NCBI GenBank assembly: GCA_963783385.1
Contig: CAWANJ010000007.1
Span: 96,001 to 160,000, forward strand
DNA length: 64,000 bases
Source: an uncultured Gemmatimonadales bacterium
Lineage (GTDB): Bacteria; Gemmatimonadota; Gemmatimonadetes; Palauibacterales; Palauibacteraceae
Reading direction: 5' to 3'
The notes under the pieces are model-generated. The model did not search any database and had not been told where the DNA came from. It worked only from the letters and a program-made list of their open reading frames with translations. The position numbers and the translations under genes were made by a program. This document shows positions 36,556-53,122 of the stretch, piece after piece. Positions within the stretch are counted from its first letter, which is position 1, and every line of letters begins with the position of its first letter.

Positions 36556-39180
36556 TCAGAGCTCGAGCTCGGCCTGCTCCTCACCGGAGGTGGCGTCCCC
36601 GGCCGCTTCCCCGGAGGCCCCGGAGTCGCCATCCGCGTTCTCCGGAGCGACTTCGGCTGCCGGCCGCGGGGCGCCGTCCCCGGCTTCCGGGGCGGCCTCT
36701 TCGCCTCCGGGTCCTGCGGAGCCCCTCGGATCCGACCGCAGCGGGTGCACGTGCGCGACGTCGTCCCCCTCGAGCCTCCCGAGCACCCGCAGACAGGCGT
36801 CGCCCCGGGCGCGCACCCGGAGCTCGGAGGCATCGGTGGTGACCAGGTCGCCGGAGCGGAGCTCCCACACGACCCGGTCACCGGGCTGGATCTCGAGCAG
36901 GCCCACCAGGTCACCGGCGCTGTCCCGGTCGGGGAGGATGGTGGCGCCCTTCCCGGCGCGGCCCTGAAGCCGGAGTTCGGTGAACGGGACTCGCTTGCCG
37001 AAGCCCCGCGAGCCCGCCACGAACAGCTCGGAGTCCCGCCGCGGCGCCATGGCGGCCACCACCCTGTCCTCCGCCTCGAGGTCGATGCCCTTCACCCCCT
37101 GGGCGGTGCGGCCCATGGGACGGACCTCGCCCTCCTCGAACCGGATCGCCATGCCGGCCCGGGTGCCGAGGACGAGCTCTCCCCCGCCTTCCGTGACCAG
37201 GGCGGTCAGGACGCGGTCGCCGTCGCCGAGGCCCGCGGCGATGATGCCGCCCGTGCGCACGTTGGAGTACTCGTCCAGCGACGTGCGCTTGACCTGCCCG
37301 CCCTCGGTGACCGTGACCAGGAAGTGGTCGGCGTCGAAGGCGGTCACCGGGAGGAGCGCCACCACCTCGTCTCCCTCCTCCAGGGCCAGGTAGCTCGCCA
37401 GGGGCTTGCCGCGCGAGCTGCGCGTGCCGCGCGGCAAGTCGCCGAGGGGCAGGGCGTGGGCGCTCCCCCGTCGAGTCACGGCCAGAAGGGAGTCGCTGCC
37501 CTGGCACAGCACGGCCTGGCTCACGAAGTCGGCCTCGCGCTCGGCGAGGGCTTCCGCCCCGGCCAGTCCCGCGCCGCCCCGCACCGGCTGGGCCTTCAGG
37601 TAGCCGCGCCGGCTGAGGAGGACGAGCGTGGCTCCCCCCGCGTTCCCCGAGGGCAGGGGGAAGGCATCGTGCCCGTCCAGGATCTCCGTGCGCCGCGCGT
37701 CCCCGTAGCGCTCCGACAGCTCCTCCAGCTCCAGGCACAGCGCGTCGCGTCGAGCCGCCTCGTCCTCGACCAGGAGCTCGAGCTCCTCGATCGAGGCCCG
37801 CAGGGAGGCGAGCTCCTCGGACAGCTTGCGGCGCTCCAGGCCCGTGAGGCTGGCCAGGCGCATGGCCAGGATGGCCCCGGCCTGCCGCTCGGAGAGCCCC
37901 ATCTCGCGCTGCAGCGCCTCCGAGGCCGCGGGGGGATCGGCCGCGGCGCGGATGATCTCCAGCACGCGGTCGATGTCGTCGAGGGCGATGAGCAGTCCCT
38001 CGACGACGTGGGCGCGGTCCCGGGCTTCCCGCAGGTCGTGGGCGGCGCGGCGGGCGATGACCTCGAGGCGGTGGTCGACGAAGCAGCGCAGCGCCTCCAC
38101 GAGGTCCAGCTCCTCGGGCCGCCCATCGACCAGGGCCAGGTTGATGATGCCGAAGGTGTATCGGAGCTGGGTCTTCTTGAACAGGACCGGCAGGAGCTTT
38201 CGCGGCTCGGAGTCGCGCTTGAGCTCGATCACCAGCCGGATGCCGTCCCGGTCGGACTCGTCGCGCAGGTCGGTGATCGCGTCCATGCGTCCGCGGCGGA
38301 CCTGGCGGGTGATCTGCTCGATGACCCGCGACTTGTTGACCTGGTACGGGAGCTCGGTCACCACGATGGCGCTCTTCCCGTAGCCCAGCTCTTCCACGTG
38401 CATGCGGGCGCGCATCTCGACCAGGCCGCGGCCCGTCCGGTAGGCCTCCTCGATGCCGTCCCGACCCCAGATGTAGCCCCCCGTCGGGAAGTCCGGGCCC
38501 GGGATGTACGCCACCAGGTCGTCGACCGTGCACTCCGGGTCGCGGACCAGGTGCACGGTGGCCGCCAGGAGCTCGGTCAGGTTGTGGGGCGGGATCTTGG
38601 TGGCCATGCCGACCGCGATCCCGTCCGTGCCGTTCAGGAGGAGCTGCGGGAGCCGGGTGGGAAGGACGGTCGGCTCCTCGAGCCGGTTGTCGAAGTTGCC
38701 CGTGAAGTCGACCGTGTCCTGGCCCAGGTCCTGGAGCATCTCCGTGGAGATCGAGGCCAGCCGGGCCTCCGTGTACCGGTAGGCGGCCGCGCTGTCGCCA
38801 TCGATGGATCCGAAGTTGCCCTGACCATCCACGAGCGGATAGCGCATGGAGAAGTCCTGCGCCATGCGCACCAGCGTGTCGTAGACGGCGCTGTCCCCGT
38901 GCGGGTGGTACTTGCCGAGCACGTCGCCCACGACGGTCGCGCTCTTCTTGTAGGGACGTCCCGGGAGGAGGCCCTGTTCCCACATGGCGTAGAGGATCCG
39001 GCGGTGCACGGGCTTGAGTCCGTCCCGGGCGTCGGGCAGGGCGCGCTGGACGATCACGCTCATCGAGTAGTCGATGAACGAGTCCCGCATCTCCTGCTCG
39101 AGGAAGCGGGGTATGATCCTCTCGTGCCGGGTCGATGCTCCTACCACGTGTCGTCCCTCGGGCTGGGGGCTTCGGTTCAT
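36556..39180 (-). CDS. Type IIA topoisomerase A subunit (GyrA-like, lacking the GyrA-box; probable ParC-type function)
   Basis: [24 protein letters not shown] and AAYRYTE catalytic Tyr. Six-blade C-terminal domain with no QxRGGxG in blade 1. Confidence 0.9.
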
Positions 39181-39446
39181 GTTCGGTCAACGTGTGGCGC
39201 GAGCCGCCGCGGGACAAGGGAGACGTCCTCCCCCCCGCGTTCGCCGGGCTGTTCGTGGCCCACGGGGCCGCCACGCTCGTCGGCGCGGAGGAGCAACGGT
39301 TCTGTTCATCCGCGGCGACATAGACTATATTAGTGGGCTGAAAGAAATATCGTCCTTCGTTTCCCGCGTGCCGATCCCGGCCGCTCCGAGGGGTGACGTG
39401 GGCTCCCGCGGAGCCGAGTCAGAAGTGCATTCTGGGAGTATCTTTC

Positions 39447-40373
39447 GTGAGGAACGGTTTCTCTTCCGAACAGAAGCGGCTGGCGGTGCTTGGCGTCAAG
39501 CCCGGTCGTAGGTCCAATCTCGGATTCGCTATCGCGTGCTTCCTGGTTCCGACCCTCGTGCTGGTCGCCGCCCTGGGCTTGAGGGCCCGGTATGGCCTGG
39601 CGCTGCCCGCCACCTCGACGCCGCTGGTGGTCATTCACGCCCGCGACTTCACGTTCGATCTCCCGGACACCCTCCCCGCGGGCTCCGTTCGCCTCCGCCT
39701 GGTGAACGAGGGGGCGACGCCCCACCACGCGGTCCTCACGCGACTCGAGGAGGGCCGGGCAGCCGGAGACTACCTGTCCGGGGTCGCCGCCTTCCTGCGG
39801 GGCGGCGAATTCCCGGGCTGGGCCGATGACCCGGGCGGACCAGGGCTGGTCATGCCGGGAGACAGCGCGGAGGTGACCGTGACACTCGCACCCGGCCACT
39901 ACCTGCTGGCGTGTTACGTGACGACGCCCACGGGGGCCACGCATCTCCAGAAGGGCATGGTGCGTGAGTTCGAGGTGGCGGCGATACCCGGTGCGCTCTC
40001 CGTCGCTCCGCCGACGGCCGATGTCACCATCGAACTCATGGACTACACCTTCCGGCTCTCGTCCCCGATCATGGCCGGAAATCACTGGATTCACGTCGTG
40101 AATCAGGGTCCCCAGGAGCACGAGGTCCAGTTCGTCCGGATCGAGCCCGGTCACACGCCCGAGGAAGCCACGGCGTGGATCGAGGGGGGGATGCAGGGAC
40201 CGGCGCCGTTCAGGCTCGAGGGCGGTCTCGCGGGGATCTCGCCGGGACGCGACGGCTACCTGCGCCAGGTCTTCGTGCCGGGCGACTACTTGCTGCTGTG
40301 CTTCGTCCCGGACCAGACCGATCGGAGGCCTCACGCGCTGCACGGTATGCTGTACGCCATCCACGTGACCTGA
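39447..40373 (+). CDS. Two-domain cupredoxin-like exported protein
   Basis: N-terminal TM/signal and two repeats, each with His..C-x9/10-H-x4-M (CYVTTPTGATHLQKGM; CFVPDQTDRRPHALHGM). Start uncertain. Confidence 0.7.
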   Translation: MRNGFSSEQKRLAVLGVKPGRRSNLGFAIACFLVPTLVLVAALGLRARYGLALPATSTPLVVIHARDFTFDLPDTLPAGSVRLRLVNEGATPHHAVLTRLEEGRAAGDYLSGVAAFLRGGEFPGWADDPGGPGLVMPGDSAEVTVTLAPGHYLLACYVTTPTGATHLQKGMVREFEVAAIPGALSVAPPTADVTIELMDYTFRLSSPIMAGNHWIHVVNQGPQEHEVQFVRIEPGHTPEEATAWIEGGMQGPAPFRLEGGLAGISPGRDGYLRQVFVPGDYLLLCFVPDQTDRRPHALHGMLYAIHVT

Positions 40374-40463
40374 GCGGCGGTCGGATGCAGGGCCGCTGCG
40401 GATCACCCGGACGCACGCGGCCGGTTGGCCCGATGGTGCCGACGCCCTAGGTTGGCGCCCCGC

Positions 40464-41399
40464 ATGCACGCTCTCCGCCGCCCGTTCGCCCGGCGCACGT
40501 GGCCGATGCCGGCCCCCGCCTGGAGCCTCGCTTTCGTGTGGGGCCTGGTGTGGGCGCCTTCGCGGCCGAGCCTGGCCCCAACGCCGGTCGGCGATCCAGG
40601 TCGGCCCGCGCCGGTCGTCCGGATCGAGGTGGCCGACTCGTCCATCTCCATCCCGGACATCCTCCCGTCGGGGCTCGTCCGTCTACGGCTCGTCGACCAC
40701 GGCAGCCGGGCCCAGCGGATCGTCCTCACGCGGCTTCGGCCGCGTCAGTCGGCGGCGGCCTACCTGCGGGGCGCCCAGCGCTGGCTCGCGGGAGGCGACT
40801 TCGGCCTGTGGGGCGTCGACCCGGGGAGCCCGGGCATGGTCGCTCCCGGAGACAGCACGGAGGTGGTCGTCCAGCTCCATCCCGGCCACTACGTGATCGC
40901 CCACTGGTCCAGCCGCACGGACGGGTCCGTACGGATCCGGATGGCGACGAAGGCGACCTTCGAGGTCCTGGCGCCGCCGATCGGGGTCCCCCCGGCCGCC
41001 GCTCCCGAACCGGACCTCTCGGTCCGCATGACGGACGATGCCTACCGGGTCTCGGGCCCGATCACGCCCGGTCACCACGTTCTGAGGATCGCGAACTACG
41101 GCTTCCACGAGCACGACTTCGAGCTCGTCCGGCTCCTCGACGGGCACACGCCCGCCGAGGCGCGCAGCTGGCTCGGGGGAGGCATGCAGGGCCCGGCCCC
41201 GGTGGAGTTCGTGGGCGGCCTGGTGGCCGTGTCGCCCGGCCTCGCCGGCTACCTGGACGTGGCGCTGGAGCCCGGGCACTACCTGGCGGTGTGCCTGGTG
41301 CCGACCGGAGCGGACCGCAGGCCGCGCGTCGACCAGGGCATGCTCGCGTCCATCCGCGTGCCGCCCGCCGGGGACGCATCGGCCAACGAGCCTCGTTGA
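40464..41399 (+). CDS. Paralogous two-domain cupredoxin-like protein with degenerate metal ligands
   Basis: Collinear with the upstream gene (DPGSPGMVAPGDSTEV; GGMQGPAP). Start uncertain. Confidence 0.65.
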   Translation: MHALRRPFARRTWPMPAPAWSLAFVWGLVWAPSRPSLAPTPVGDPGRPAPVVRIEVADSSISIPDILPSGLVRLRLVDHGSRAQRIVLTRLRPRQSAAAYLRGAQRWLAGGDFGLWGVDPGSPGMVAPGDSTEVVVQLHPGHYVIAHWSSRTDGSVRIRMATKATFEVLAPPIGVPPAAAPEPDLSVRMTDDAYRVSGPITPGHHVLRIANYGFHEHDFELVRLLDGHTPAEARSWLGGGMQGPAPVEFVGGLVAVSPGLAGYLDVALEPGHYLAVCLVPTGADRRPRVDQGMLASIRVPPAGDASANEPR

Positions 41400-41451: not shown

Positions 41452-43356
41452 GTGTCGATGCTGACCGGCTTCACGACCCACCTTCTCCAGGCGGCCCTCC
41501 TCCTGGCCCCCCAGGCCGCGGCGGCGGGATCGTCGACCCCGCCGATGGCGCCCCCGGGAGTCCCCCCGGACACGCTGTGGCAGCAGCGAGTGGCATACAG
41601 CACCGAGGCGCAGCTCGACGAGGATGCCCAGGTCCTCCACGCCGCCGAGGTCGTGCGCTACCAGAACGCCTCCCCGGACACGCTGAGGGCCCTGTTCTTC
41701 CACCTGTACCTGAACGCCTTCCGGCCCCACAGCATCTGGGCGCGCACCGAGCAGAGGAAGCCGTACGACTTCGGCGCGCTCCGGGACCCCGACTACGGGT
41801 ACGAGCGCGTCCGCTCGGCCGAGCTGGTCCCGTGGGGAAGGGGGAGCGGCCGGGGCAGCGGCGCGAGGGAGGGGCGCGGCGCCGGGGGCCGGGACCTGTC
41901 GGCTGCCTACCCGTTCGCCCCGGACTCCACCGTCGTGCGCTTCGACCTGCCGCGGCCGCTGGCGCCGGGCGATTCGCTGCGGGTCCGGATCGAGTGGGAC
42001 GCGCGACCCGCGACCCTGTGCCGGCGACAGTGCCGCGAGGGGCGTCACTGGGATTTCGCGCAGTGGTATCCCCGCGTGGCCGTGTACGACACGGCCGGCT
42101 GGGAGGACCACCCGCTGCATCCGCAGGGGGAGTTCTACGGCGAGTTCGGGAGCTACGACGTGACGCTCGACCTGGCCTCCGACCAGGTGGTGGGGGCCAC
42201 GGGCGTGCCGGTCGACGGGGACCCGGGCTGGAAGCCGGACTCCTCGAGCCCCGACCGGACGGTCGACTACCAGCGCGACTGGTACGGCACTCCAGTGCGG
42301 CTCGATGACCCGGGGATGCTGGACGGTCCGGCGACGGGAGGCCGCAAGCGGGTGCGCTTCCGGGCGGAGCGCGTGCACCACTTCGCGTGGAGCGTCGATC
42401 CCGCCTACCGCTACGAGCAGGGGCACCTGGGCAGGGTCGCGGTCCGCGTGCTGTACCGCCCCGGCGACCTGGACTGGGACCTCGGGGCCGCGGTGCGGCG
42501 CACGATCCGGGCGCTCCGCTGGCTGGGAGGCATCTACGGCCCGTACCCGTGGCCGCAGCTCACCAACCTCCATCGTCTGGAGGGGGGCGGCACCGAGTTC
42601 CCCATGGTGATCATGAACGGCGGGCCGGGGCAGGGGCTCATCACGCACGAGTCCAGCCACCAGTACAACATGGGCATCCTGGCCAACAACGAGTGGAAGG
42701 AGGGCTGGCTCGACGAGGGCATGGCCAGCTTCCTGACCAACTGGTTCGAGCGGGAGCACGGGGTGGCCGACCCCTGGGCTCGCAGCATGCGGTCCGCCCG
42801 GGCGCGGGAGGCGGCGGGCGCCACGCAGGTGGTGTCCGAGGCGTCCGAGAACTTCGCGGACTACGGCACCTACGGCGCCATGATCTACACCAAGGGTTCG
42901 GTCGTCCTGCGCATGCTCCGGTGGCTGGTGGGCGAGCAGCACTTCCGGAAGGGCATGCACCTCTACTACCGTGGCTACCGTTTCCACCACGTGGACGGGG
43001 CCGACCTCGAGGCCGCCATGGAGCGATCCGGCGGGCAGGATCTGGCATGGTTCTTCCACCAATGGCTGCAAACTACGTGGACCCTCGACTACGCGGTGGG
43101 CAAAGTCCGCACCGAGCCCGTTGGCGATGGACGGTGGAGGACGAGCGTCGAGGTGACGCGCCAGGGCAGGGCGTGGATGCCCGTCGACCTGGCCGTCGGG
43201 GACGCGACGGTTCGCCTGGACTCGCGTGACGCGAGCCAGACGGTGACTGTCGTAACGACCGGGAGGCCCGAATCGGTGGTCCTGGATCCCGAGGACGTGC
43301 TCCTGGAGACGGATCGCGAGAACAATCGGAAGGAGCTGGGCGCACAGGACCTCTAG
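41452..43356 (+). CDS. M1 family aminopeptidase (secreted)
   Basis: AQWYPR, GEFYGEFG, GGTEFP, HESSHQY..WLDEG and YTKGS. Confidence 0.9.
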   Translation: MSMLTGFTTHLLQAALLLAPQAAAAGSSTPPMAPPGVPPDTLWQQRVAYSTEAQLDEDAQVLHAAEVVRYQNASPDTLRALFFHLYLNAFRPHSIWARTEQRKPYDFGALRDPDYGYERVRSAELVPWGRGSGRGSGAREGRGAGGRDLSAAYPFAPDSTVVRFDLPRPLAPGDSLRVRIEWDARPATLCRRQCREGRHWDFAQWYPRVAVYDTAGWEDHPLHPQGEFYGEFGSYDVTLDLASDQVVGATGVPVDGDPGWKPDSSSPDRTVDYQRDWYGTPVRLDDPGMLDGPATGGRKRVRFRAERVHHFAWSVDPAYRYEQGHLGRVAVRVLYRPGDLDWDLGAAVRRTIRALRWLGGIYGPYPWPQLTNLHRLEGGGTEFPMVIMNGGPGQGLITHESSHQYNMGILANNEWKEGWLDEGMASFLTNWFEREHGVADPWARSMRSARAREAAGATQVVSEASENFADYGTYGAMIYTKGSVVLRMLRWLVGEQHFRKGMHLYYRGYRFHHVDGADLEAAMERSGGQDLAWFFHQWLQTTWTLDYAVGKVRTEPVGDGRWRTSVEVTRQGRAWMPVDLAVGDATVRLDSRDASQTVTVVTTGRPESVVLDPEDVLLETDRENNRKELGAQDL

Positions 43357-43373
43357 CCAACAGGAGTAAACGC

Positions 43374-43763
43374 ATGCGTAAATGGAGCGGAGCTATCGTC
43401 GTGGGGCTCGGCGCCCTGCTGGCCGTCAGCGGGCCCGCGGCGGCCCAACAGGCGCACGTCGTTTCATCCTCGGAGGTCGATCAGGCAGTCCGCACGGCGA
43501 GTACGCCCGCGGCCGCCGAGCGCGCGGCCCTGCGCAGGCTGCTGGCCCGGCCGCAGACCCAGGCCGTGGCCGACCGCTACGGCCTGGACCTCGAGCGGGC
43601 GCGCGACGCGGTGGCCACGCTGGACGGCCCCGAGCTGGCGCAGCTCGGCGCCCGTGCCCAGCGGCTCGATGCCGCGCTGGCCGGCGGAGCCGACACCGTC
43701 ATCATCCCGGTTACCACGATCATCATCGCGCTTCTCGTTCTCGTCATCATCCTCGTGTCATGA
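43374..43763 (+). CDS. Secreted double-glycine precursor-like protein (PA2779-like)
   Basis: Sec signal (AAA|QQ), helical region ending LDGPELAQL..LAGG, then a 24-aa hydrophobic tail. RBS AGGAG. Confidence 0.75.
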   Translation: MRKWSGAIVVGLGALLAVSGPAAAQQAHVVSSSEVDQAVRTASTPAAAERAALRRLLARPQTQAVADRYGLDLERARDAVATLDGPELAQLGARAQRLDAALAGGADTVIIPVTTIIIALLVLVIILVS

Positions 43764-45901
43764 GGCCACGCGGCCGGGCGGCTGCTGCCGCCCTGGCCGC
43801 GCTCCTCGAGCTGGGCGCCCCCTGGCGTCCGGTGGCCGCTCTCCAGACGCCCGGCGTCGCCTCCGATACGACGCCGGGCGTTTCCGTCCTGGACGTGCCC
43901 TACGTGCCCCAGTCGGAGGAGCTGTGCGGCGGGGCGGCGGCGGTCATGGTGTTTCGCTACTGGGGCGTGGATTCGGTGGCTGTCCGCGAGTTCGCGCCGC
44001 TGGTGGACGATTCCGCCCGCGGGATCCGCACCGGGACGCTCACCGACGAGATCCGCTCCCTGGGCTGGAGGGCGGTGGCCTTCCGGGGCAGCCTGCCCGA
44101 GCTCCGCCGGCAGCTGGCGCGGGGACGGCCGGTCATCGTGCTGCTCCGAATGGGGCCCGACCGGTACCACTACGTGGTCGTGGTGGCGGCCGACGACGGG
44201 ACGGTCCTCGTGCACGACCCCGCCCGCGCCCCGTTCCGGAAGCTGTCGGTGGCGGAATTCCGGAGCATGTGGGCGCCGACCGGGGCGTGGTCGCTGCTCG
44301 TGGTTCCCGCCCGCCACCGGGTCGATTCCCTGCGTGCGGCCCCCGCGGATTCCACGTCGGCGGCCCCCGCTCCGCGAGCCGCCGACTCGGCGGCGGAGCG
44401 CACCGCCGTCCCTCCTCCCGCGGGACCCTCGGCCTGCCACGAGCGGGTCGGGGACGCCGTCCGCATGGCCAGGGATGGCGACATGGCCGGGGCCGCTCGG
44501 GTGCTGGAGGCGACCGCGGCCGCCTGTCCGGATTCCGCGTCTCCCCTCCGCGAGCTGTCCGGCGTCCGCTTCCAGCAGCGGCGGTGGATGGAGGCTGCCG
44601 CCGCGGCTCGCCGGGCCCTCGCGCTCGAGCCCGGCGACCCGTACACGACGCGGCTCCTCGCCGGAGATCTGTACATGGCGGGCCGCCGCGAGGAGGCGCT
44701 CCGAACCTGGAACGAGGTCGGCGAGCCCCGCGTCTCGTCCCTGCGTGTGTACGGGCTCGAGCGGGTGCGCTACCGGGTCGTGGCCCGCCGCGTGGACCTG
44801 CCCCGCGACAGCCTCCTGACCCGGCGCCGGCTGGCCCTGGTGCGCCGCCGCCTGGACGCGGTGCCGGGGTTCGCGGCGACGCGGGTGGACTGGGGCTACC
44901 AGGGCGCGGGCCGGGCCGAACTGCGCGTGGCCGTGCTGGAGCGGCGACCGCTGCCGGGGGGAGTGCCGGGCCTGGTGCTCTCCCTGGCCGCCGGTCTCCC
45001 CCAGCGGGTGGTGCGCGTTCGGACCGGCAGCCTGTTCGGGGACGGGGAGCGCATGAGCGCCGCCTGGCGCTGGTGGAGCGAGAGGCCGCGCGTGTCGCTG
45101 GACGTCCAGGGGCCCGATGCATTCGGCCTGACCGGGATCTGGGACGCGGGGGGGTCGTGGGAGCGGGAGGCGTTTCGCGTGCCGGCGGCTTCCGGGCCCG
45201 CCGACACCCTGCGCGAGGAGCGCTGGAGCGCCGGCCTGGCGCTGGACGCGTGGGGGACCCCCTTCCTGCGGTGGCGGGTCGGCGTGTCCCTGGATCGGTG
45301 GGCCGGACGCGGGACGGCGCCCGGCGTGGCCGCGGGCGTTGAGCTCCTGGGCGCCGGGGACCGCGTGAGGCTGGTAGCCGGGGGGCGGGCGTGGCCCGGA
45401 CCCGACGGCGCCTTCGGTGCGGGGCGGGCGGAGCTCGGCTGGCGATCCGCGGAGCGCCCGCGGGGTGTGGTTCTCTCCTCGAGGGTCGGGTACGCGGCCG
45501 CCTCCGCCCGGGCTCCCTTGCAGCTATGGCCGGGGGCCGGCACGGGCCACGCCCGGCCGACCCTGCTGCGGGCCCACCCGCTGCTGGAGGGCGGCGTGGT
45601 CTCGGGTCCCGCGTTCGGACGGAGGGTGGCATACGCCGGGGCGGAGATGACCGCCTGGTATGCCGGGCTCGCGCCCCTGGCGGTCGGGCCCGCGCTGTTC
45701 GTGGACTTCGCCCGGGCCTGGAGCCGCCCGGGCGGGGGGGCGAGCCCGGCCGAGGTGGACGTGGGGGCCGGGCTTCGCCTGGCCGTTCCGGGGACGCCGT
45801 CCCGTCTCCGCCTCGACGTGGCGCACGGGCTGCGGGACGGGGAGAACGCCGTGTCGATCGGATGGGAGGGAGTCTGGCCCGGGGACGGCAGCCAGCGCTG
45901 A
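43760..45901 (+). CDS. C39-like cysteine peptidase-TPR-POTRA-Omp85-like beta-barrel fusion
   Basis: VPYVPQSEELCGGAA..YHYVVV..VHDP (C39), TPRs, a POTRA-like segment (VSSLRVYGLER..LRVAVLER) and a Trp/Gly-rich barrel ending RLDVAHG..SIGW. ATGA overlap with the upstream gene. Confidence 0.78.
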   Translation: MRPRGRAAAAALAALLELGAPWRPVAALQTPGVASDTTPGVSVLDVPYVPQSEELCGGAAAVMVFRYWGVDSVAVREFAPLVDDSARGIRTGTLTDEIRSLGWRAVAFRGSLPELRRQLARGRPVIVLLRMGPDRYHYVVVVAADDGTVLVHDPARAPFRKLSVAEFRSMWAPTGAWSLLVVPARHRVDSLRAAPADSTSAAPAPRAADSAAERTAVPPPAGPSACHERVGDAVRMARDGDMAGAARVLEATAAACPDSASPLRELSGVRFQQRRWMEAAAAARRALALEPGDPYTTRLLAGDLYMAGRREEALRTWNEVGEPRVSSLRVYGLERVRYRVVARRVDLPRDSLLTRRRLALVRRRLDAVPGFAATRVDWGYQGAGRAELRVAVLERRPLPGGVPGLVLSLAAGLPQRVVRVRTGSLFGDGERMSAAWRWWSERPRVSLDVQGPDAFGLTGIWDAGGSWEREAFRVPAASGPADTLREERWSAGLALDAWGTPFLRWRVGVSLDRWAGRGTAPGVAAGVELLGAGDRVRLVAGGRAWPGPDGAFGAGRAELGWRSAERPRGVVLSSRVGYAAASARAPLQLWPGAGTGHARPTLLRAHPLLEGGVVSGPAFGRRVAYAGAEMTAWYAGLAPLAVGPALFVDFARAWSRPGGGASPAEVDVGAGLRLAVPGTPSRLRLDVAHGLRDGENAVSIGWEGVWPGDGSQR

Positions 45902-45927
45902 GAGGCTCCCGGCGGCCGACGCGCGGC

Positions 45928-46323
45928 TCAGCCGGCCAGCAGCTCCCGGGTGGCCTCCTGGGCCGGCGATGGGTCGAGGGGCACCGCGATGACCAGGGCC
46001 CTCCGGTTACGCTGCTGGGGCAGGTGGAGCAGGAGCGGTCCGTCCGGGGGGACCCCGTTCGCATCCTCGGCGCGCCCGTCGGGGCCCACGGCCACGGCCC
46101 GGCCCGGATCGAGCCGGGCCGCCAACCACAGGCCGTAGTCCAGCCACGCGGCGACGCCGGCCTCCCCCTGCGCCTCTCCATCGGGGGAGAGCTCGTTCTC
46201 GTAGCGCTGGACGGCCTCGCGGTAGGCGTCGGGATCCCGGTCGCGGAGCTGCTTGAGGATCTCCCGGCACGGCGGACGTGGGTCCGAGAGCCCGCGGGCC
46301 TCCAGGGCCTCCTCGAGCGTCAC
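45928..46323 (-). CDS. Hypothetical protein
   Basis: Codon-biased ORF starting 8 nt downstream of rho. Confidence 0.65.
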   Translation of the reverse strand: MTLEEALEARGLSDPRPPCREILKQLRDRDPDAYREAVQRYENELSPDGEAQGEAGVAAWLDYGLWLAARLDPGRAVAVGPDGRAEDANGVPPDGPLLLHLPQQRNRRALVIAVPLDPSPAQEATRELLAG

Positions 46324-46330
46324 GGCCCGG

Positions 46331-47584
46331 TCACTCTCCCGCCGTCATCGAGTCCAGGAACTCCTGGTTGGTCCTGGTGCGATTGAGACGCTCGATGAGG
46401 AACTGCACCGCCTCGGCCGGCGGCATGTCGGAGAGGAAGTTCCGCAGGAGGTACATGCGGTTGAGCTCCGTGTCGGTGAGCAGGAGCTCCTCCTTACGGG
46501 TGCTGGAACGATTGAGGTCGATGGCCGGATAGATGCGCTTGTCGGCGATCTGGCGGTCGAGGATGACCTCGCTGTTCCCCGTCCCCTTGAACTCCTCGAA
46601 GATCACCTCGTCCATGCGGCTCCCGGTCTCAACCAGGGCGGTGGCGCAGATCGTGAGGCTGCCTCCCTCCTCGATGTTGCGCGCCGCGCCGAAGAAGCGC
46701 TTGGGCTTGTGGAGCGCGTTGGCGTCCACGCCGCCCGAAAGGATCTTGCCGCTGTGCGGGACCGTGGTGTTGTAGGCGCGCGCCAGGCGCGTGATCGAGT
46801 CGAGCAGGATCACGACATCCTGGCGGTACTCCACCAGCCGCTTGGCCTTCTCCAGCACCATCTCCGCCACCTGGGTGTGGCGGTCGGCGGGCTCGTCGAA
46901 CGTGGACGAGATGATCTCCGCGTCCACGTGCTCCTCCATGTCCGTCACCTCCTCCGGCCGCTCATCGATGAGGAGCACGATGAGCTTGCACTCGGGGTGG
47001 TTTTCTAGTACCGAATTTGCGATCTTTTGGAGGAGCATCGTCTTCCCGGCCTTGGGCGGGGAGACGATGAGCGAGCGCTGTCCCTTACCGATCGGGGCGA
47101 CCAGGTCCAGGATCCGCATCGAGACGTCGCCGTCCAGGCGTTCTAGCTGCAGCCGCTCCTCGGGATAGCGCGGCCTGAGGTTGTCGAACCCGATGCGGTG
47201 CTTGGCCTTCTCCGGGTCGTCCCCGTTGACGGTCTCGACCTTGAGCAGCGCCAGGTACCGCTCGCCCTCCTTGGGTGGACGCACCTGGCCCAGGACCGTG
47301 TCCCCGGTGCGGAGATCGAAGCGCTTGATCTGGGACGGAGACACGTAGATGTCGTCCGGGCCGTACAGGTAGTTCCAGTCCTGGCTGCGCAGGAAGCCGT
47401 ATCCCTCGGGCAGGATCTCGAGCACCCCCTCGCCGCGGAGCACGGTGTCCGTGTCCAGGAGGCTCTGCTCGATGCGGAAGATGAGGTCCTGCTTCCGCAG
47501 CCCCGAGTAGTTGTGAATGCTGAGATCGTCGGCCAGCTCGTGCAGCTCGCCGATCGACTTGGATTTCAACTCTGCGATGTCCAC
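46331..47584 (-). CDS. rho: Transcription termination factor Rho
   Basis: [33 protein letters not shown] and FEEFKGTGN. Confidence 0.98.
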
Positions 47585-49444: not shown

Positions 49445-50107
49445 TCAGAAGGTCCAGAACAGGCTCGCCATGATCCGGTCGGCGCCGCGGTTCACCGATC
49501 CGAGCTCGGCGACGTCGAAGAGGCTCTGGAGCTGCATCGTGTAGTGTCGCCATTCCAGGCGTCCTCCCCAGCGGGACGAGAGGCGGGCTTCCACGCCGCC
49601 CCCCAGCACGAACGCGTTCTGAGACCGCGTCGGAAGCCCGGACCGGGCGGGATCGAACACCAGGGTCCCCAGCCCGAACTCCGCGAAGGGTACCACACCC
49701 GCCGAGACCAGGGGATCCAGGGCCAGGCGTGGCTCGGCCACCACCTCCACCAGGTAGCCGTGCACGTCGGTGGAGTCCGCGCCATCCACGACACGCTCGG
49801 GCGTGTAGGCCACGCCGAGGCGGACGGACAGGTAGCGAAGCAGTCGCCGTCCCACGTCCAGTCCCCAGGCGGACGCGTTCCGGGGTGTGCGGGAGGCCGA
49901 GCCGCTCCACAGCAGCGCGCTCCCGGTCATCCCGATGCGGAACTGGCGCGGCGCCGGCGGATTCTCGGGGCCGTAGGCGGCGGCCGAGTCGGCCGCCGCG
50001 GCGGAATCGGCCGCCGCGCCCGCGGCCTGGGCGCGGAGGGGTCCGCCGGACAGGAGGAAGGTCAGCGCCACGGCCGCGAGGATCGAGGCTGCACGTCGGA
50101 TCTTCAT
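49445..50107 (-). CDS. Small outer-membrane beta-barrel protein
   Basis: Signal peptide MKIRRAAS..LRA, alternating beta strands and a C-terminal aromatic (LFWTF). ATGA overlap with tolC. Confidence 0.75.
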   Translation of the reverse strand: MKIRRAASILAAVALTFLLSGGPLRAQAAGAAADSAAAADSAAAYGPENPPAPRQFRIGMTGSALLWSGSASRTPRNASAWGLDVGRRLLRYLSVRLGVAYTPERVVDGADSTDVHGYLVEVVAEPRLALDPLVSAGVVPFAEFGLGTLVFDPARSGLPTRSQNAFVLGGGVEARLSSRWGGRLEWRHYTMQLQSLFDVAELGSVNRGADRIMASLFWTF

Positions 50108-51515
50108 CGCTCCCCCACGGCCGCCAGCAGGTTGGCTCGCGCGACCCCGTAATCGTGCAGGGCTTGCGCCCGGTTGGTTCGCGCCTGGGTCACGGCGAGC
50201 TCGGCGTTGTTCAGCTCCACCTGCGTAGACAGCCCGTTCTTGAAGCGGGTCTCTGCGATCTGCAGCGCCTTTTCCGCGCGCTGGACGTTGGCCTGGGACG
50301 CCTGGATGCGCTGCCGCGCCGCGTCCAGGTCCTGGTAGGCCTGCTGCACCTGGAGCCGCACGTTCTCCTCGAGCTGGCGCAGGTGGAACTGTTCCCGCTC
50401 CTTCTGGGCCGCCGCCTGCTGCACCTCGCCGGAGCGCTTGCGCCCGTCGAACAGCGGGACGCTGAAGTCCAGGCCCGCCGTGGCGCTCTGGGCGAAGTCC
50501 TGCCCGGGCGGCAGCAGCTCGCTGGACGACGCCTGGCGCGTGAGTCCCGCGATCAGCTTGAGGACGGGCAGGGAGGAACGCTTCTGCGCCGTCAGGTTCT
50601 CCTCCTGGAGCTGCACGCGCACGCGCTGCGCCTTGAGGTCGGGACGCGCCCGCTCGGCCAGCTCCATGTAGCGCTGGAGGCTGGCCGAGTCCGAGGGGGT
50701 GGGGAAGCTGTCGGTGAGCACGAGCGTCCTGTCGAGCGGCAGGCCGAGCGTCCGCTTGAGCTGGTTGCGGCTCAGCGCGTACCGGTTCCGGGCCTCGATG
50801 AGGGGGGACGCAGGTTGTCGACCTCCACCTGGGCCGTGAGCAGATCGAACTCCGACCCCGTGCCCGCCTTGTAGAAGTCCTGCACCTGGTCGAGCCGCCG
50901 CTGAGCCTGCTCGAGCGCCTTCTCCTGCACGTCGACCAGCGCTCGGCCGAGCAGGACGTCGTAGTACGCCGTCCGGGCCGCCAGGGCCACGCTCGTGCGC
51001 GCCGCCTGCACCTGGTCGGCGCTGGCGTCCCTGCTGAGCCGGGCCGCGGTCCGCGCCGGGCCGAGCGAGAAATCGAGCAGCGTCTGGGAGAGGGTGAGCC
51101 CGAAGCTGTACTGGTTGTCGTTGCCGATCGTGATCTGCTGCACCCCGTTGGCACCGTTGAAGAAGATCACCGGCTTCTGGATGTTGCGCGTATAGCTGAA
51201 GTCGGCGGAGATCTGCGGATAGGCGTCCGCTCCGACCTGCTTGACGATGCCGGCCGCTTCGGCTGCGGTCGCGCGCGCCATGAGCACCTGCTCGTTGCGG
51301 CTCATGGCCATGTCGACCGCCTCCTGGACCCCGAGCGTGATCGTGTCGCCCCGGGGCGCCGCGGGCGCGGTCGTGTCGGGCAGGGCCTGCTGCGCCCGGA
51401 GGCCGCCGGCCGCCGGAGCCAGCGTCAGGGCCGCCGCCAGGAGAGCCGCGGCGGGCCGGCTCGCGGGGCGGGGTCGGTGGAGCCGATCCACCGCGCCGTA
51501 CCATCTCCCAGACAT
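50104..51515 (-). CDS. TolC family outer-membrane efflux protein, frameshifted at a G6 run (50802-50807)
   Basis: Signal peptide, AYYDVLL, GTGSEFDLL, VPLFDG and RFKNGLSTQVEL. Adding one base to the homopolymer restores NLRPPLIEAR. Confidence 0.88.
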
Positions 51516-51529
51516 CTCGTCTCCTCTCG

Positions 51530-53122
51530 TCATTCCATCATCACGTCGGGGCCGTCTCGCGGCCCGGAGTGCAGGAAGAATATCAGCGGAATGGCCACCG
51601 CGAACACGACGGCCATCAGAAAGAACACGTGGTTGAAGGAAAGCATCGACGCCTGCCGCGTCATGATCCCGTCCAGCATCCGGTAGGACTTCCGGTAGGC
51701 CAGCTGCGTGCCACCACCCAGCTGCTGAAAGGCGTGCTCCGCGTTCTGGATGAACGAGGACACGGGCCCGCGCGCGCTCGAGAGGTGGCGGGCCATGATC
51801 GCGCGATAGCGGATGCCTCCGTTGTCCAGCTCGGTGGCGGCGAGCGCCACGCCGGCGCTCCCGAACACCCGTCGCACCACGTTGTACAGCCCGGTGGCGT
51901 CGCTCATCTGGTCCTTGCGGAGCTCCGCCACGGCGGCGGTGCTCAGGGCCACGAAGATGAGCGCGAAGCCCACGCCCTGGAGGACCTGCGGCCAGCACAG
52001 GTCCCAGAATCCCACGTTCAGGTTGAGCTGCCCCAGCTCCCAGAACGCGTACGTGCTGATCGCCAGGCCGCTCCCGATGTACACGCGTGGCCCGAATCGG
52101 TTGTAGAACCGCCCGGCGATCGGGAACACGACCCCCATCGCCAGGCTGCGGGGCATGAGGGTGAGTCCGGAGTTGAACGCCGGGTAGCCCAGGAGCTCCT
52201 GGAGGAACAGGGGCAGGATGAAGATGCTGGCGTATAGCCCCACGCCCAGGATCCCCCCGATGATGGTCGCCGAGGCGAAGGGGACGTTCTTGAACAGACG
52301 CAGGTTCACGGCGGGCTCGTCCGAATGGAGCTCCCACCAGATGAAGGCCGCCAGTCCCGCGAAGGCCAGGAGCGCCAGCCACCGGATGAGGTCGGACTGG
52401 AACCACTGCTTGTTGCGCCCCTCCTCGAGCATGATCTGCAGGCAGCTCAGGCCCACCGCCAGGAAGCCCATGCCCGTCCAGTCGATCGACACCTCCCGCC
52501 GTCGCGCGTAGGGCGGGTCCTCGACGAAGCGGTCGACCAGGAAGAGGTTGAGGAGCCCGATGGGGACGTTGATGAAGAAGATCCAGGGCCACGAGTAGTG
52601 GTCGGTGATCCAGCCCCCCACCGTGGGGCCGAGCGCCGGCGCGAGGACGACGCCAATGCCGAAGATGCCCATGGCGGTCCCGCGCTCCTGGGGCGGGAAG
52701 TTCTCCAGGAGGATCGCCTGCGAGAGGGGGATGAGCGCCCCACCGCCCACGCCCTGCAGGATCCGGAAGGCGACCAGCTCGGTCAGGGAGCTGGAGGTGC
52801 CGCACAGGGCCGAGGCCAGCGCGAACAGCATCACGCTCAGCATGTAGTAGCGCTTGCGGCCGATCTTGGCGCTGAGCAGCGACACGAGGGGCATCATGAA
52901 CCCCTCGGTGAGGATGTAGCCGGTCGCCACCCAGGTGATCTGCTCGATGGACGCGCCCAGGTTCCCCTGCATGTGGGGCAGGGCGACGTTCACGATCGAG
53001 ATGTCCAGGACGCTCATGATCGTCCCGGTCATCACCGACAGCGTGACGATCCACTTGCCGTGGGTGGGCGTCCATTCCTCGAGGGCGGGGGAGCCGGCTC
53101 CCCCGGCGGAAGGTCCCGCCAC
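51530..53122 (-). CDS. DHA2 (EmrB/QacA) MFS efflux permease
   Basis: LDISIVNVALP, RILQGVGGG and WPWIFFINVPIG motifs with a 14-TM pattern. Confidence 0.95.
   Translation of the reverse strand: MAGPSAGGAGSPALEEWTPTHGKWIVTLSVMTGTIMSVLDISIVNVALPHMQGNLGASIEQITWVATGYILTEGFMMPLVSLLSAKIGRKRYYMLSVMLFALASALCGTSSSLTELVAFRILQGVGGGALIPLSQAILLENFPPQERGTAMGIFGIGVVLAPALGPTVGGWITDHYSWPWIFFINVPIGLLNLFLVDRFVEDPPYARRREVSIDWTGMGFLAVGLSCLQIMLEEGRNKQWFQSDLIRWLALLAFAGLAAFIWWELHSDEPAVNLRLFKNVPFASATIIGGILGVGLYASIFILPLFLQELLGYPAFNSGLTLMPRSLAMGVVFPIAGRFYNRFGPRVYIGSGLAISTYAFWELGQLNLNVGFWDLCWPQVLQGVGFALIFVALSTAAVAELRKDQMSDATGLYNVVRRVFGSAGVALAATELDNGGIRYRAIMARHLSSARGPVSSFIQNAEHAFQQLGGGTQLAYRKSYRMLDGIMTRQASMLSFNHVFFLMAVVFAVAIPLIFFLHSGPRDGPDVMME

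Follow-up and report, generated by a model that had tools for sequence, protein, structure and literature searches.

In a 64,000-nucleotide stretch of DNA from an uncultured Gemmatimonadales bacterium of the Palauibacteraceae (assembly GCA_963783385.1, contig CAWANJ010000007.1, positions 96,001 to 160,000; hereafter the window, with positions counted from its first letter), two overlapping genes at 43374-45901 encode what is, on balance, probably a self-contained periplasmic double-glycine module, in which a C39 peptidase tethered to an outer-membrane barrel would cut a dedicated partner after Gly-Gly. Gene 1 encodes the small partner, and gene 2 encodes a single chain that joins a signal peptide, a C39 cysteine peptidase, a flexible linker, tetratricopeptide repeats (TPRs), one POTRA domain and an Omp85-type barrel. 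The proposal draws on the domain make-up and predicted fold of this chain, its intact catalytic residues, the invariant Gly-Gly of the partner and the strict pairing of the two genes. The architecture is built from known kinds of parts, i.e. the PA2778/PA2779 gene pair and enzyme-Omp85 fusions such as PlpD, and the finding is real, conserved and widespread.

The two genes and their proteins

Both genes lie on the forward strand. An AGGAG stands 8 nucleotides upstream of the gene 1 ATG, and the overlap claimed in the preliminary description of this stretch is confirmed at 43760-43763, where the letters ATGA hold both the gene 2 ATG (43760-43762) and the gene 1 TGA (43761-43763). The features of the locus are as follows, with the basis of each in brackets.

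43362-43366, + strand: ribosome-binding-like site AGGAG (sequence reading)
43374-43763, + strand: gene 1, PA2779-family protein of 129 residues (translation and NCBIfam match)
43374-43445, + strand: gene 1 signal peptide, residues 1-24 (basic start, hydrophobic run, A-x-A, AlphaFold2 helix 3-18)
43446-43682, + strand: gene 1 predicted periplasmic helical domain, residues 25-103 (AlphaFold2 helices, conservation)
43683-43688, + strand: codons of G104-G105 (GGC GGA), proposed cleavage site (sequence and conservation)
43689-43760, + strand: gene 1 C-terminal 24 residues, a short spacer and hydrophobic segment (translation, AlphaFold2 helix 113-128)
43760-45901, + strand: gene 2, 713-residue fusion of signal peptide, C39, linker, TPR, POTRA and Omp85 barrel (translation, Pfam/NCBIfam, AlphaFold2, fold matches)
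43760-43843, + strand: gene 2 signal peptide region, about residues 1-28, end approximate (MRPRGR and an Ala/Leu run)
43889-44305, + strand: C39 cysteine peptidase domain, residues 44-182 (Pfam above cut-offs, invariant residues)
43910-43912, 43925-43927, 44168-44170 and 44216-44218, + strand: codons of Q51, C56, H137 and D153, respectively (translation)
44306-44425, + strand: disordered Ala/Pro-rich linker, residues 183-222 (confidence below 50 at 194-221)
44426-44713, + strand: TPR region, residues 223-318 (AlphaFold2 helices, homologue Pfam matches, PDB profile)
44729-44941, + strand: single POTRA domain, residues 324-394 (AlphaFold2 beta-alpha-alpha-beta-beta unit)
44951-45877, + strand: Omp85-type beta-barrel, about residues 398-706 (fold match, homologue families)
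45503-45622, + strand: long conserved loop, residues 582-621, with LRAHP at 45566-45580 (AlphaFold2, conservation)

The gene 1 product opens with a basic, hydrophobic N-terminal stretch that closes on AAA and continues through a polar middle to LAGG, followed by ADTVIIPVTTIIIALLVLVIILVS. The anatomy originally assigned to it (a Sec signal, a helical pro-region ending in LAGG and a hydrophobic 24-mer) is borne out by the translation, the AlphaFold2 model and the homologues. The basic start, hydrophobic run and A-x-A of the N-terminus recur across those homologues, and the signal peptide would be cut after AAA. In the model, which has a mean pLDDT (predicted local distance difference test) of 68, the mature part folds into helices at residues 32-42, 45-57, 60-69, 73-82 and 86-103; the last of these is amphipathic and runs into the Gly-Gly, which lies in a coil (104-112) between it and the C-terminal helix (113-128). 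Among 55 aligned sequences, Gly occupies P1 and P2 in all 55, and upstream of it Leu is found at P4 in 48, Ala at P11 in 49 and Leu at P18 in 48, with P8 and P15 also hydrophobic; these positions line one helix face that leads into the Gly-Gly, like that of known C39 substrates. R50, L57 and A66 of the helical part are invariant. After the Gly-Gly there are 22-26 residues in every homologue, and this tail has a mean top-residue frequency of 0.68, versus 0.55 for the helical part. What follows the hydrophobic run is Asp in 18 sequences, nothing in 16, Lys in 10, Asn in 8 and Arg in 3.

Gene 1 narrowly passes the NCBIfam subfamily model PA2779_fam (NF033919), with 42.2 bits (E 8e-11) for a cut-off of 40; all 55 homologues match that model at E 0.01 or better, and one relative bears the NCBI name 'PA2779 family protein'. 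Members of this family presumably occur, as a rule, beside a gene for a PA2778-like C39 peptidase. The NCBIfam sorting-signal families gave no match for gene 1 or its homologues, and the Nif11 leader family matched a single homologue (1/55) weakly. When the model was compared with 48,161 chains, only generic helical bundles were returned, with a best Z of 6.5, and gene 1 is therefore given no fold assignment; ESM Atlas likewise gave nothing beyond clusters named 'hypothetical protein', in which 10-15% of members carry DUF6627.

For gene 2, the domain order read from the letters at the outset (a signal-like N-terminus, a C39 peptidase with its Gln, Cys, His and Asp residues, TPRs, a POTRA-like segment at about 44732-44944 and a barrel ending in RLDVAHG..SIGW) held up throughout: the terminal motif is present in the translation, and the model, made from a 66-row alignment, has a mean pLDDT of 87 and a predicted template modelling score of 0.71. 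The N-terminus begins MRPRGR and continues in an Ala/Leu run, and most of the 66 full-length homologues likewise start with basic residues and a hydrophobic run, a few being truncated; model confidence is low at residues 17-39. Over residues 44-172 the peptidase scores above the cut-offs of two Pfam families, Peptidase_C39_2 (PF13529; 40.6 bits, cut-off 24) and Peptidase_C39 (PF03412; 39.7 bits, cut-off 22), both of which are matched by 66/66 homologues. Q51, C56, H137 and D153 are invariant across the alignment, the Cys codon at 43925 and the His codon at 44168 being those of C56 and H137; we take these residues to be the catalytic Cys and His with their Asp and the oxyanion Gln. Profiled against the PDB, the family finds the ComA peptidase domain at E 4e-6, and the spacing of the residues resembles that of ComA. 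The second-best NCBIfam match of the peptidase, seen in 60/66 homologues, is NHLM_micro_ABC1, an exporter family of NHLP type, and NCBI labels relatives of gene 2 simply 'C39 family peptidase'.

Behind the peptidase comes the linker, 20-63 residues long with a median of 25 among the homologues and with a conservation of 0.17, and then a TPR region of six predicted helices. The protein's own TPR matches in Pfam are weak (E 0.02, below cut-offs); TPR families are matched by 27-42 of the 66 homologues, and the family profile matches consensus TPR proteins in the PDB, with single stretches at E ~2e-5. C226 is invariant and C256 nearly so; both sit at one end of the first pair of TPR helices and could form a disulfide, fitting an oxidising compartment. 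The distance from TPR to POTRA is 13 residues in 66/66 homologues. When TPR and peptidase (residues 40-322) were submitted together with gene 1 residues 28-116 to complex prediction, both partners being supplied as alignments, the scores were 0.29 and 0.24 for a mark of 0.32 and have no bearing either way. Additionally, a tblastn search of a plasmid collection with the C39-TPR part gave no match.

The POTRA unit was recognised from its predicted fold; the family profile finds the POTRA region of Fusobacterium nucleatum BamA in the PDB at E 3e-4, and none of the 66 homologues matches a Pfam POTRA family. The C-terminus does model as a barrel, as had been anticipated. Its closest fold match is TamA of Pseudomonas aeruginosa (8us3; Z 26.2, root-mean-square deviation 4.9 over 349 residues), in an alignment (model residues 312-706, chain residues 153-579) that takes in the last TamA POTRA and the whole barrel; a barrel-only TamA structure (8us4) aligns over 271 residues, model positions 398-704, with Z 22.8 and a deviation of 3.9. 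FhaC and CdiB follow at Z 22-23 and BamA at about Z 22. Foldseek against the PDB likewise ranks TamA, BamA and FhaC first (E ~2e-12), and the family profile reaches the TamA barrel at E 0.0027. At the level of sequence families, Pfam Omp85 (PF01103) matches 21/66 homologues at E 0.01 or better (best 1e-6) and NCBIfam Omp85_fam matches 15/66. The window's own protein has no Pfam Omp85 match, so that for this sequence the barrel rests on its homologues and the predicted fold. A DSSP assignment of the model gives a provisional count of 15 strands up to residue 703, versus the 16 of an Omp85 barrel, together with a helix at 402-415 that sits where the TamA alignment begins.

The most conserved segment of gene 2 is a long loop of the barrel, residues 582-621, with a conservation of 0.76 and 20 of its 40 positions at 90% or above (the C39 domain stands at 0.66). 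R604, A605, H606 and P607 are invariant among the 66 homologues, and of the five strands that follow the loop the second carries the invariant residues F647 and D649. Omp85 proteins have a motif, (V/I)RG(F/Y), in the loop called L6, with a partner motif on a late strand. The preliminary description had equated an LRAH loop of gene 2 with this site; the loop is indeed there, in the form LRAHP with RAHP invariant, whereas the literal (V/I)RG(F/Y) is absent from gene 2, and the equivalence to L6 is thus one of position only. Read in that way, the loop would be L6-like and the F647/D649 strand its partner.

Pairing and distribution

A scan of genomes, one per species, found 446 stretches matching the search pattern, 419 of which encode a relative; the genome-locus counts given here refer to the best 80 of those 419. 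Gene 2 is present as a full-length frame in 69 of the 80, split between frames in 6, cut by a contig end in 4 and truncated in 1. The PA2779-like gene adjoins it in 79/80: in 77 it immediately precedes gene 2 on the same strand, and in 2 (L064 and L076) it comes after gene 2; at the remaining locus (L048), where only 18 nucleotides of upstream DNA are available, gene 1 is not assessable. In the 75 loci where both genes were scored, the gene 1 stop mostly lies between -14 and +42 nucleotides from the gene 2 start, and twelve of them have the 4-nucleotide overlap. Independently, a short C39 protein served as the query to collect another 80 loci from metagenomes; 74 are of the fused type, and gene 1 is directly upstream in 73 of these, the last one being cut. 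With the pair conserved across hundreds of loci, chance is excluded, and the co-occurrence on which the original proposal depended is confirmed. In other words, gene 1 and gene 2 are a fixed two-gene module. No other neighbour is conserved with them, as no gene cluster is common to more than 16 of the 80 genome loci.

The 80 genome loci come from Gemmatimonadota, from Vicinamibacteria and other Acidobacteriota, and from Eisenbacteria and Krumholzibacteriota, with single records labelled Fibrobacteraceae, Rhodothermales and Longimicrobiales. The gene 1 family numbers 969 clusters at E <=0.001 among 8000 candidates scored, nearly all of them 128-131 residues long, and the barrel part 373 clusters at the same threshold, with at least 633 residues in 109 of the 120 listed. 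Within Gemmatimonadota the module is patchy: it occurs in 12/201 sampled genomes, the window's own included, and in 0/11 sampled genomes of the window's family when that genome is set aside. The window's genome holds one copy of the module. One Gemmatimonadota assembly has a full pair on each of two contigs (L002 and L005) and may thus carry two module copies.

Several candidates for variant architectures were set aside. Apparent 'barrel-only' proteins of 400-485 residues start inside or after the TPR and have no signal peptide, and most 'short' proteins of 250-390 residues run into frame-shifted text; we regard both as gene-calling or assembly artefacts rather than natural split forms. Two single frames that seemed to fuse gene 1 to gene 2 (L013:3428-5980 and L053:3512-5950) change frame near the Gly-Gly, with the tail in the next frame, and are probably assembly errors. 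At one further locus, on a 2.5-Mb Marinacidobacterales contig (L038:3875-5185), the gene ends soon after the POTRA, at profile position 410, and unrelated genes follow; this is a truncated copy or a rearrangement.

Two metagenome loci (L082:300-2238 and L086:1354-4265) lack a PA2779-like gene and encode a stand-alone, Sec-type C39 peptidase of 167-180 residues. Next in order come an EF-hand-like gene of lipoprotein type and the gene for a CarboxypepD_reg-like beta-sandwich protein (29.2 bits, cut-off 32.3), which in L082, two genes downstream of the peptidase, ends in Gly-Gly and a hydrophobic tail; the L086 copy is cut by the contig end. These loci may represent a second kind of pairing between a periplasmic C39 peptidase and a protein laid out as domain, Gly-Gly and tail; with a single complete case, this is only a lead.

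The surroundings of the module in the window are as follows. At 41452-43356 (+) lies a gene for a 634-residue protein whose N-terminus is hydrophobic and which has a Peptidase_M1 domain (75 bits); the gene ends 17 nucleotides before gene 1 on the same strand, with no counterpart conserved at other loci. Upstream of it, two tandem genes for paralogue-like proteins of about 325 residues (39393-40373 and 40425-41399, both +) each show an internal duplication, with similar motifs in both halves, as judged from the translations. Farther out, and read by eye from translations, are a GyrA-like gene (36556-39180, -), a Rho-like gene (46331-47584, -) and an outer-membrane-factor-like gene with an MFS-type pump gene after it (50104-53122, -); none of these recurs beside the module elsewhere. 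A promoter and terminator scan of 43000-46400 found none and is uninformative for this organism. DNA near-identical to 43300-45950 occurs in sediment and salt-marsh metagenome runs: among the 20 runs listed, 10 contain at least half of the sampled words, and all 20 are sediment or salt-marsh DNA, with no RNA run among them.

Comparison with known systems

The nearest relatives by content are the PA2778/PA2779 pairs, in which a C39 domain followed by TPR is encoded beside a protein of ~125-130 residues with a signal peptide, Gly-Gly and a hydrophobic end. This link, suggested from the outset, stands with a qualification. Gene 1 belongs to the PA2779 family, and gene 2 aligns to positions 3-255 of the 255 in the PA2778 equivalog model (NF033920) with 61.2 bits and E 1e-16, missing the cut-off of 150, while 66/66 gene 2 homologues match C39_PA2778_fam at E 0.01 or better, the best at 2.6e-23. 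PA2778 lacks the roughly 390 extra residues of gene 2 that make up the POTRA and the Omp85 barrel; as judged by sequence, gene 2 falls outside that family and is a relative of PA2778 to which a POTRA and a barrel have been added. The papers found touch on the Pseudomonas genes only briefly: PA2779 is termed a 'hypothetic protein' (PMC3985676), and PA2778 has been called a 'putative C39 peptidase' and treated as a candidate toxin upstream of a candidate immunity gene (bioRxiv 10.1101/733030).

In layout, the analogy drawn in the preliminary description to PlpD, the type Vd protein, is sound: both are single chains that start with an enzyme, continue with one POTRA and end in an Omp85 barrel, which gives gene 2 the type Vd domain order of N-terminal passenger, POTRA and barrel. 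PlpD differs in that its enzyme is a patatin lipase, whereas gene 2 carries a C39 cysteine peptidase and TPR, and gene 2 has a dedicated, adjoining substrate-like gene. PlpD was long taken to secrete its enzyme, but according to a newer report the enzyme stays in the periplasm, so that transfer of the passenger to the surface is disputed for the very prototype (PMC11116518).

TamA is the best fold match of gene 2, through its last POTRA and whole barrel, and gene 2 homologues give weak family-profile matches to both TamA and BamA. These proteins have three or five POTRA domains versus one in gene 2, share ~18% identity with it, and have (V/I)RG(F/Y) where gene 2 has LRAHP; furthermore, no TamB-like partner is conserved near gene 2 in the 80 genome loci. 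Gene 2 does not belong with the TpsB proteins of two-partner secretion either, as it has one POTRA, as the 17 Pfam families that its 66 homologues match include neither ShlB nor POTRA_2, and as its partner is a helical protein of 129 residues.

Periplasmic C39 peptidases have a precedent in the Fap system, where the active peptidase FapD works with the outer-membrane barrel FapF (PMC5557850), and 7/66 gene 2 homologues give weak matches to C39_FapD. FapD is needed for secretion through FapF, and its class of C39 peptidase is called uncharacterised there; peptidase and channel are separate proteins, however, and FapF is a 12-stranded, trimeric barrel rather than an Omp85 (PMC5557850). Moreover, amyloid subunit genes such as those of Fap are not part of the two-gene module.

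The peptidase-containing exporters of the ATP-binding cassette (ABC) type, such as ComA and the NHLP/Nif11-type systems, share with the module the peptidase family and a Gly-Gly substrate behind an amphipathic helix. Gene 2 differs in having neither an ABC membrane domain nor an ATPase domain: its matches to ABC exporter families cover the peptidase part only (for example, model positions 3-119 of 710), and no ABC family appears in the Pfam results of gene 2 or of its 66 homologues. Finally, the GlyGly-CTERM/rhombosortase system resembles gene 1 in that its exported proteins end in a Gly motif and then a hydrophobic segment (PMC6219818). Gene 1 differs from such proteins in lacking a basic cluster (a single Lys or Arg is found in 13/55), in being the one putative substrate of its enzyme, and in lying beside a soluble-type C39 peptidase rather than an intramembrane rhomboid.

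A proposed reaction, its alternatives and its significance

How might the two proteins work together? As we picture it, the gene 2 product would be exported by Sec and its C-terminal Omp85 barrel assembled in the outer membrane, with the POTRA and TPR held rigidly below the barrel and an active C39 domain suspended on the flexible tether of 20-63 residues. The outer membrane is the place of an Omp85 barrel, whose POTRA points into the periplasm, and the PlpD enzyme is reported to be periplasmic; we therefore place C39 and TPR in the periplasm too. The gene 1 product would also be exported by Sec and lose its signal peptide. A segment as hydrophobic as its tail should, behind a Sec signal, stop in the inner membrane, and for this reason we infer that the tail would hold the protein at the outer face of that membrane. 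As both enzyme and substrate carry Sec signals, the reaction would be periplasmic and not cytoplasmic. The amphipathic last helix of gene 1 would dock on the peptidase through P4, P8, P11, P15 and P18, probably with help from the TPR, and a cut after G105 would release a soluble five-helix domain of ~80 residues and leave a hydrophobic peptide of 24. The barrel would serve as an outer-membrane anchor for the enzyme, in line with what has lately been reported of PlpD, and, as the very high conservation of its inner loop suggests, might also act on one of the two products.

Several observations weigh against this proposal. The link to the PA2778 family is one of similarity only, given a score of 61 bits for a cut-off of 150. 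The Gly-Gly would lie near the inner membrane, far from an enzyme fixed at the outer membrane, and a linker with a median of 25 residues may not reach it. The tail ends mostly in Asp or in nothing, with Lys or Arg in 13/55, which is unusual for a stable stop-transfer anchor, and its conservation (0.68, versus 0.55 for the helical domain) is more than a mere anchor needs. Additionally, that the most conserved part of gene 2 should be an inner loop of the barrel fits active transport better than a passive anchor. With these points counted, we still consider cleavage by a barrel-tethered peptidase slightly more probable than not.

A more ambitious version, in which cleavage is coupled to the action of the Omp85 barrel, deserves some weight even though it is unlikely: the highly conserved, beta-branched 24-mer or the helical domain would be passed along the TPR/POTRA arm to the seam or lumen of the barrel and into or across the outer membrane. 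If true, neither the Omp85 client nor the maturation route would have a described counterpart, and the gene 2 product would be a one-protein secretion system with a built-in protease. Export survives as a minority reading since conservation is highest in the tail of the one protein and in the inner barrel loop of the other.

The form of export in which the 24-mer is the mature product and the helical part a long leader, comparable to those of Nif11/NHLP systems, is distinctly improbable. The same protein would then move the 24-mer through or beside its barrel, to be inserted in the outer membrane or carried to the far side as a toxin, coat or filament unit. In classical C39 systems it is indeed the part after the Gly-Gly that is the product, and the kinship of the peptidase with NHLP-type exporters, together with the lone weak Nif11 leader match in gene 1 homologues, points the same way, as do the fixed length of the tail, its rank, after the Gly-Gly, as the most conserved part of gene 1, its lack of a basic end and the conservation of the barrel loop. 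However, an Ile/Leu/Val segment of 19-21 residues behind a Sec signal should enter the inner membrane, and the module has no ATPase, carrier or other conserved partner (80 loci) to extract it. Conservation of the supposed leader as a folded domain, R50, L57 and A66 being invariant, argues that it is not thrown away, and the cores of leader-type precursors are usually variable, whereas this tail is not. Known Omp85 clients are beta-strand proteins rather than single hydrophobic helices. Moreover, an enzyme-Omp85 fusion need not export anything at all, as PlpD indicates (PMC11116518).

Could the exported product instead be the helical domain, released from a temporary inner-membrane anchor in the manner of GlyGly-CTERM proteins and carried to the surface by POTRA and barrel as in two-partner secretion? 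We hold this to be improbable to the same degree. The succession of domain, Gly-Gly and hydrophobic end does resemble C-terminal sorting signals (PMC6219818), the stand-alone periplasmic C39 peptidase two genes upstream of a Gly-Gly-tailed beta-sandwich in L082 is in keeping with it, and the conserved helical domain, the highly conserved barrel loop and the good fold matches to FhaC and CdiB (Z 22-23) count in its favour. The POTRA count is one and not two, however, with no TpsB-type (ShlB) or two-partner secretion family among the Pfam families matched; TamA and BamA types are the best matches in both fold and sequence; the basic cluster of true sorting signals is absent; and the L082 lead consists of one complete and one cut locus. 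Furthermore, a small helical bundle offers no folding energy outside the cell comparable to that of a beta-helix.

That no processing occurs is less probable again. On such an account the gene 1 product would be a stable partner that bridges the membranes via the TPR and C39 domains, or a regulator or inhibitor of the enzyme, whose true substrates would be other periplasmic proteins. In its favour, binding is what TPR domains do, conservation extends to the helical domain and one partner is predicted in each membrane; the target of the periplasmic C39 peptidase FapD is likewise unclear (PMC5557850). What this account leaves aside is that an invariant Gly-Gly (55/55) behind an amphipathic helix with Leu at P4 is the signature of C39 substrates, that the catalytic residues are invariant, and that a one-to-one, often translationally coupled pairing is typical of an enzyme and its dedicated substrate. 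Last, a type Vd-like autotransporter, in which C39, alone or with TPR, would pass its own barrel to the surface and cut outside targets, is very improbable: it has in its favour the order of passenger, POTRA and barrel seen in PlpD, the type Vd prototype (PMC4104836), and a linker of 20-63 residues that could span a barrel, and against it the periplasmic location now reported for the PlpD enzyme domain (PMC11116518), the fixed 13-residue joint of TPR and POTRA, a dedicated partner whose predicted place is the inner membrane or the periplasm, and the existence of barrel-less relatives (the PA2778 type, model length 255).

The fusion had been thought undescribed, and no C39-Omp85 fusion was found among the papers listed in searches on Omp85, C39 peptidases, POTRA, double-glycine, PA2778/PA2779, DUF6627, PF20332, NF033919 and NF033920. 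For example, 'peptidase', 'C39' and 'TPR' are absent from the main text, supplements not covered, of a 2014 survey of Omp85 architectures (PMC4104836). The fusion is thus unreported in that literature, which is not to say that it is new to everyone.

What, then, does the module offer? We see in it a whole Omp85 subfamily with a protease and a one-to-one, substrate-like partner, common in soil and sediment Acidobacteriota, Gemmatimonadota and their relatives. Omp85 proteins are core machines for building and crossing outer membranes, and other roles have been found for only a few of them. Now that the PlpD model has been revised, the module represents a simple two-gene system for asking what enzyme-Omp85 fusions do, and the same two genes bear on what periplasmic C39 peptidases cut. 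Cleavage of the gene 1 product by its barrel-tethered peptidase would also give a function to the PA2778 and PA2779 families, which have so far been mere names.

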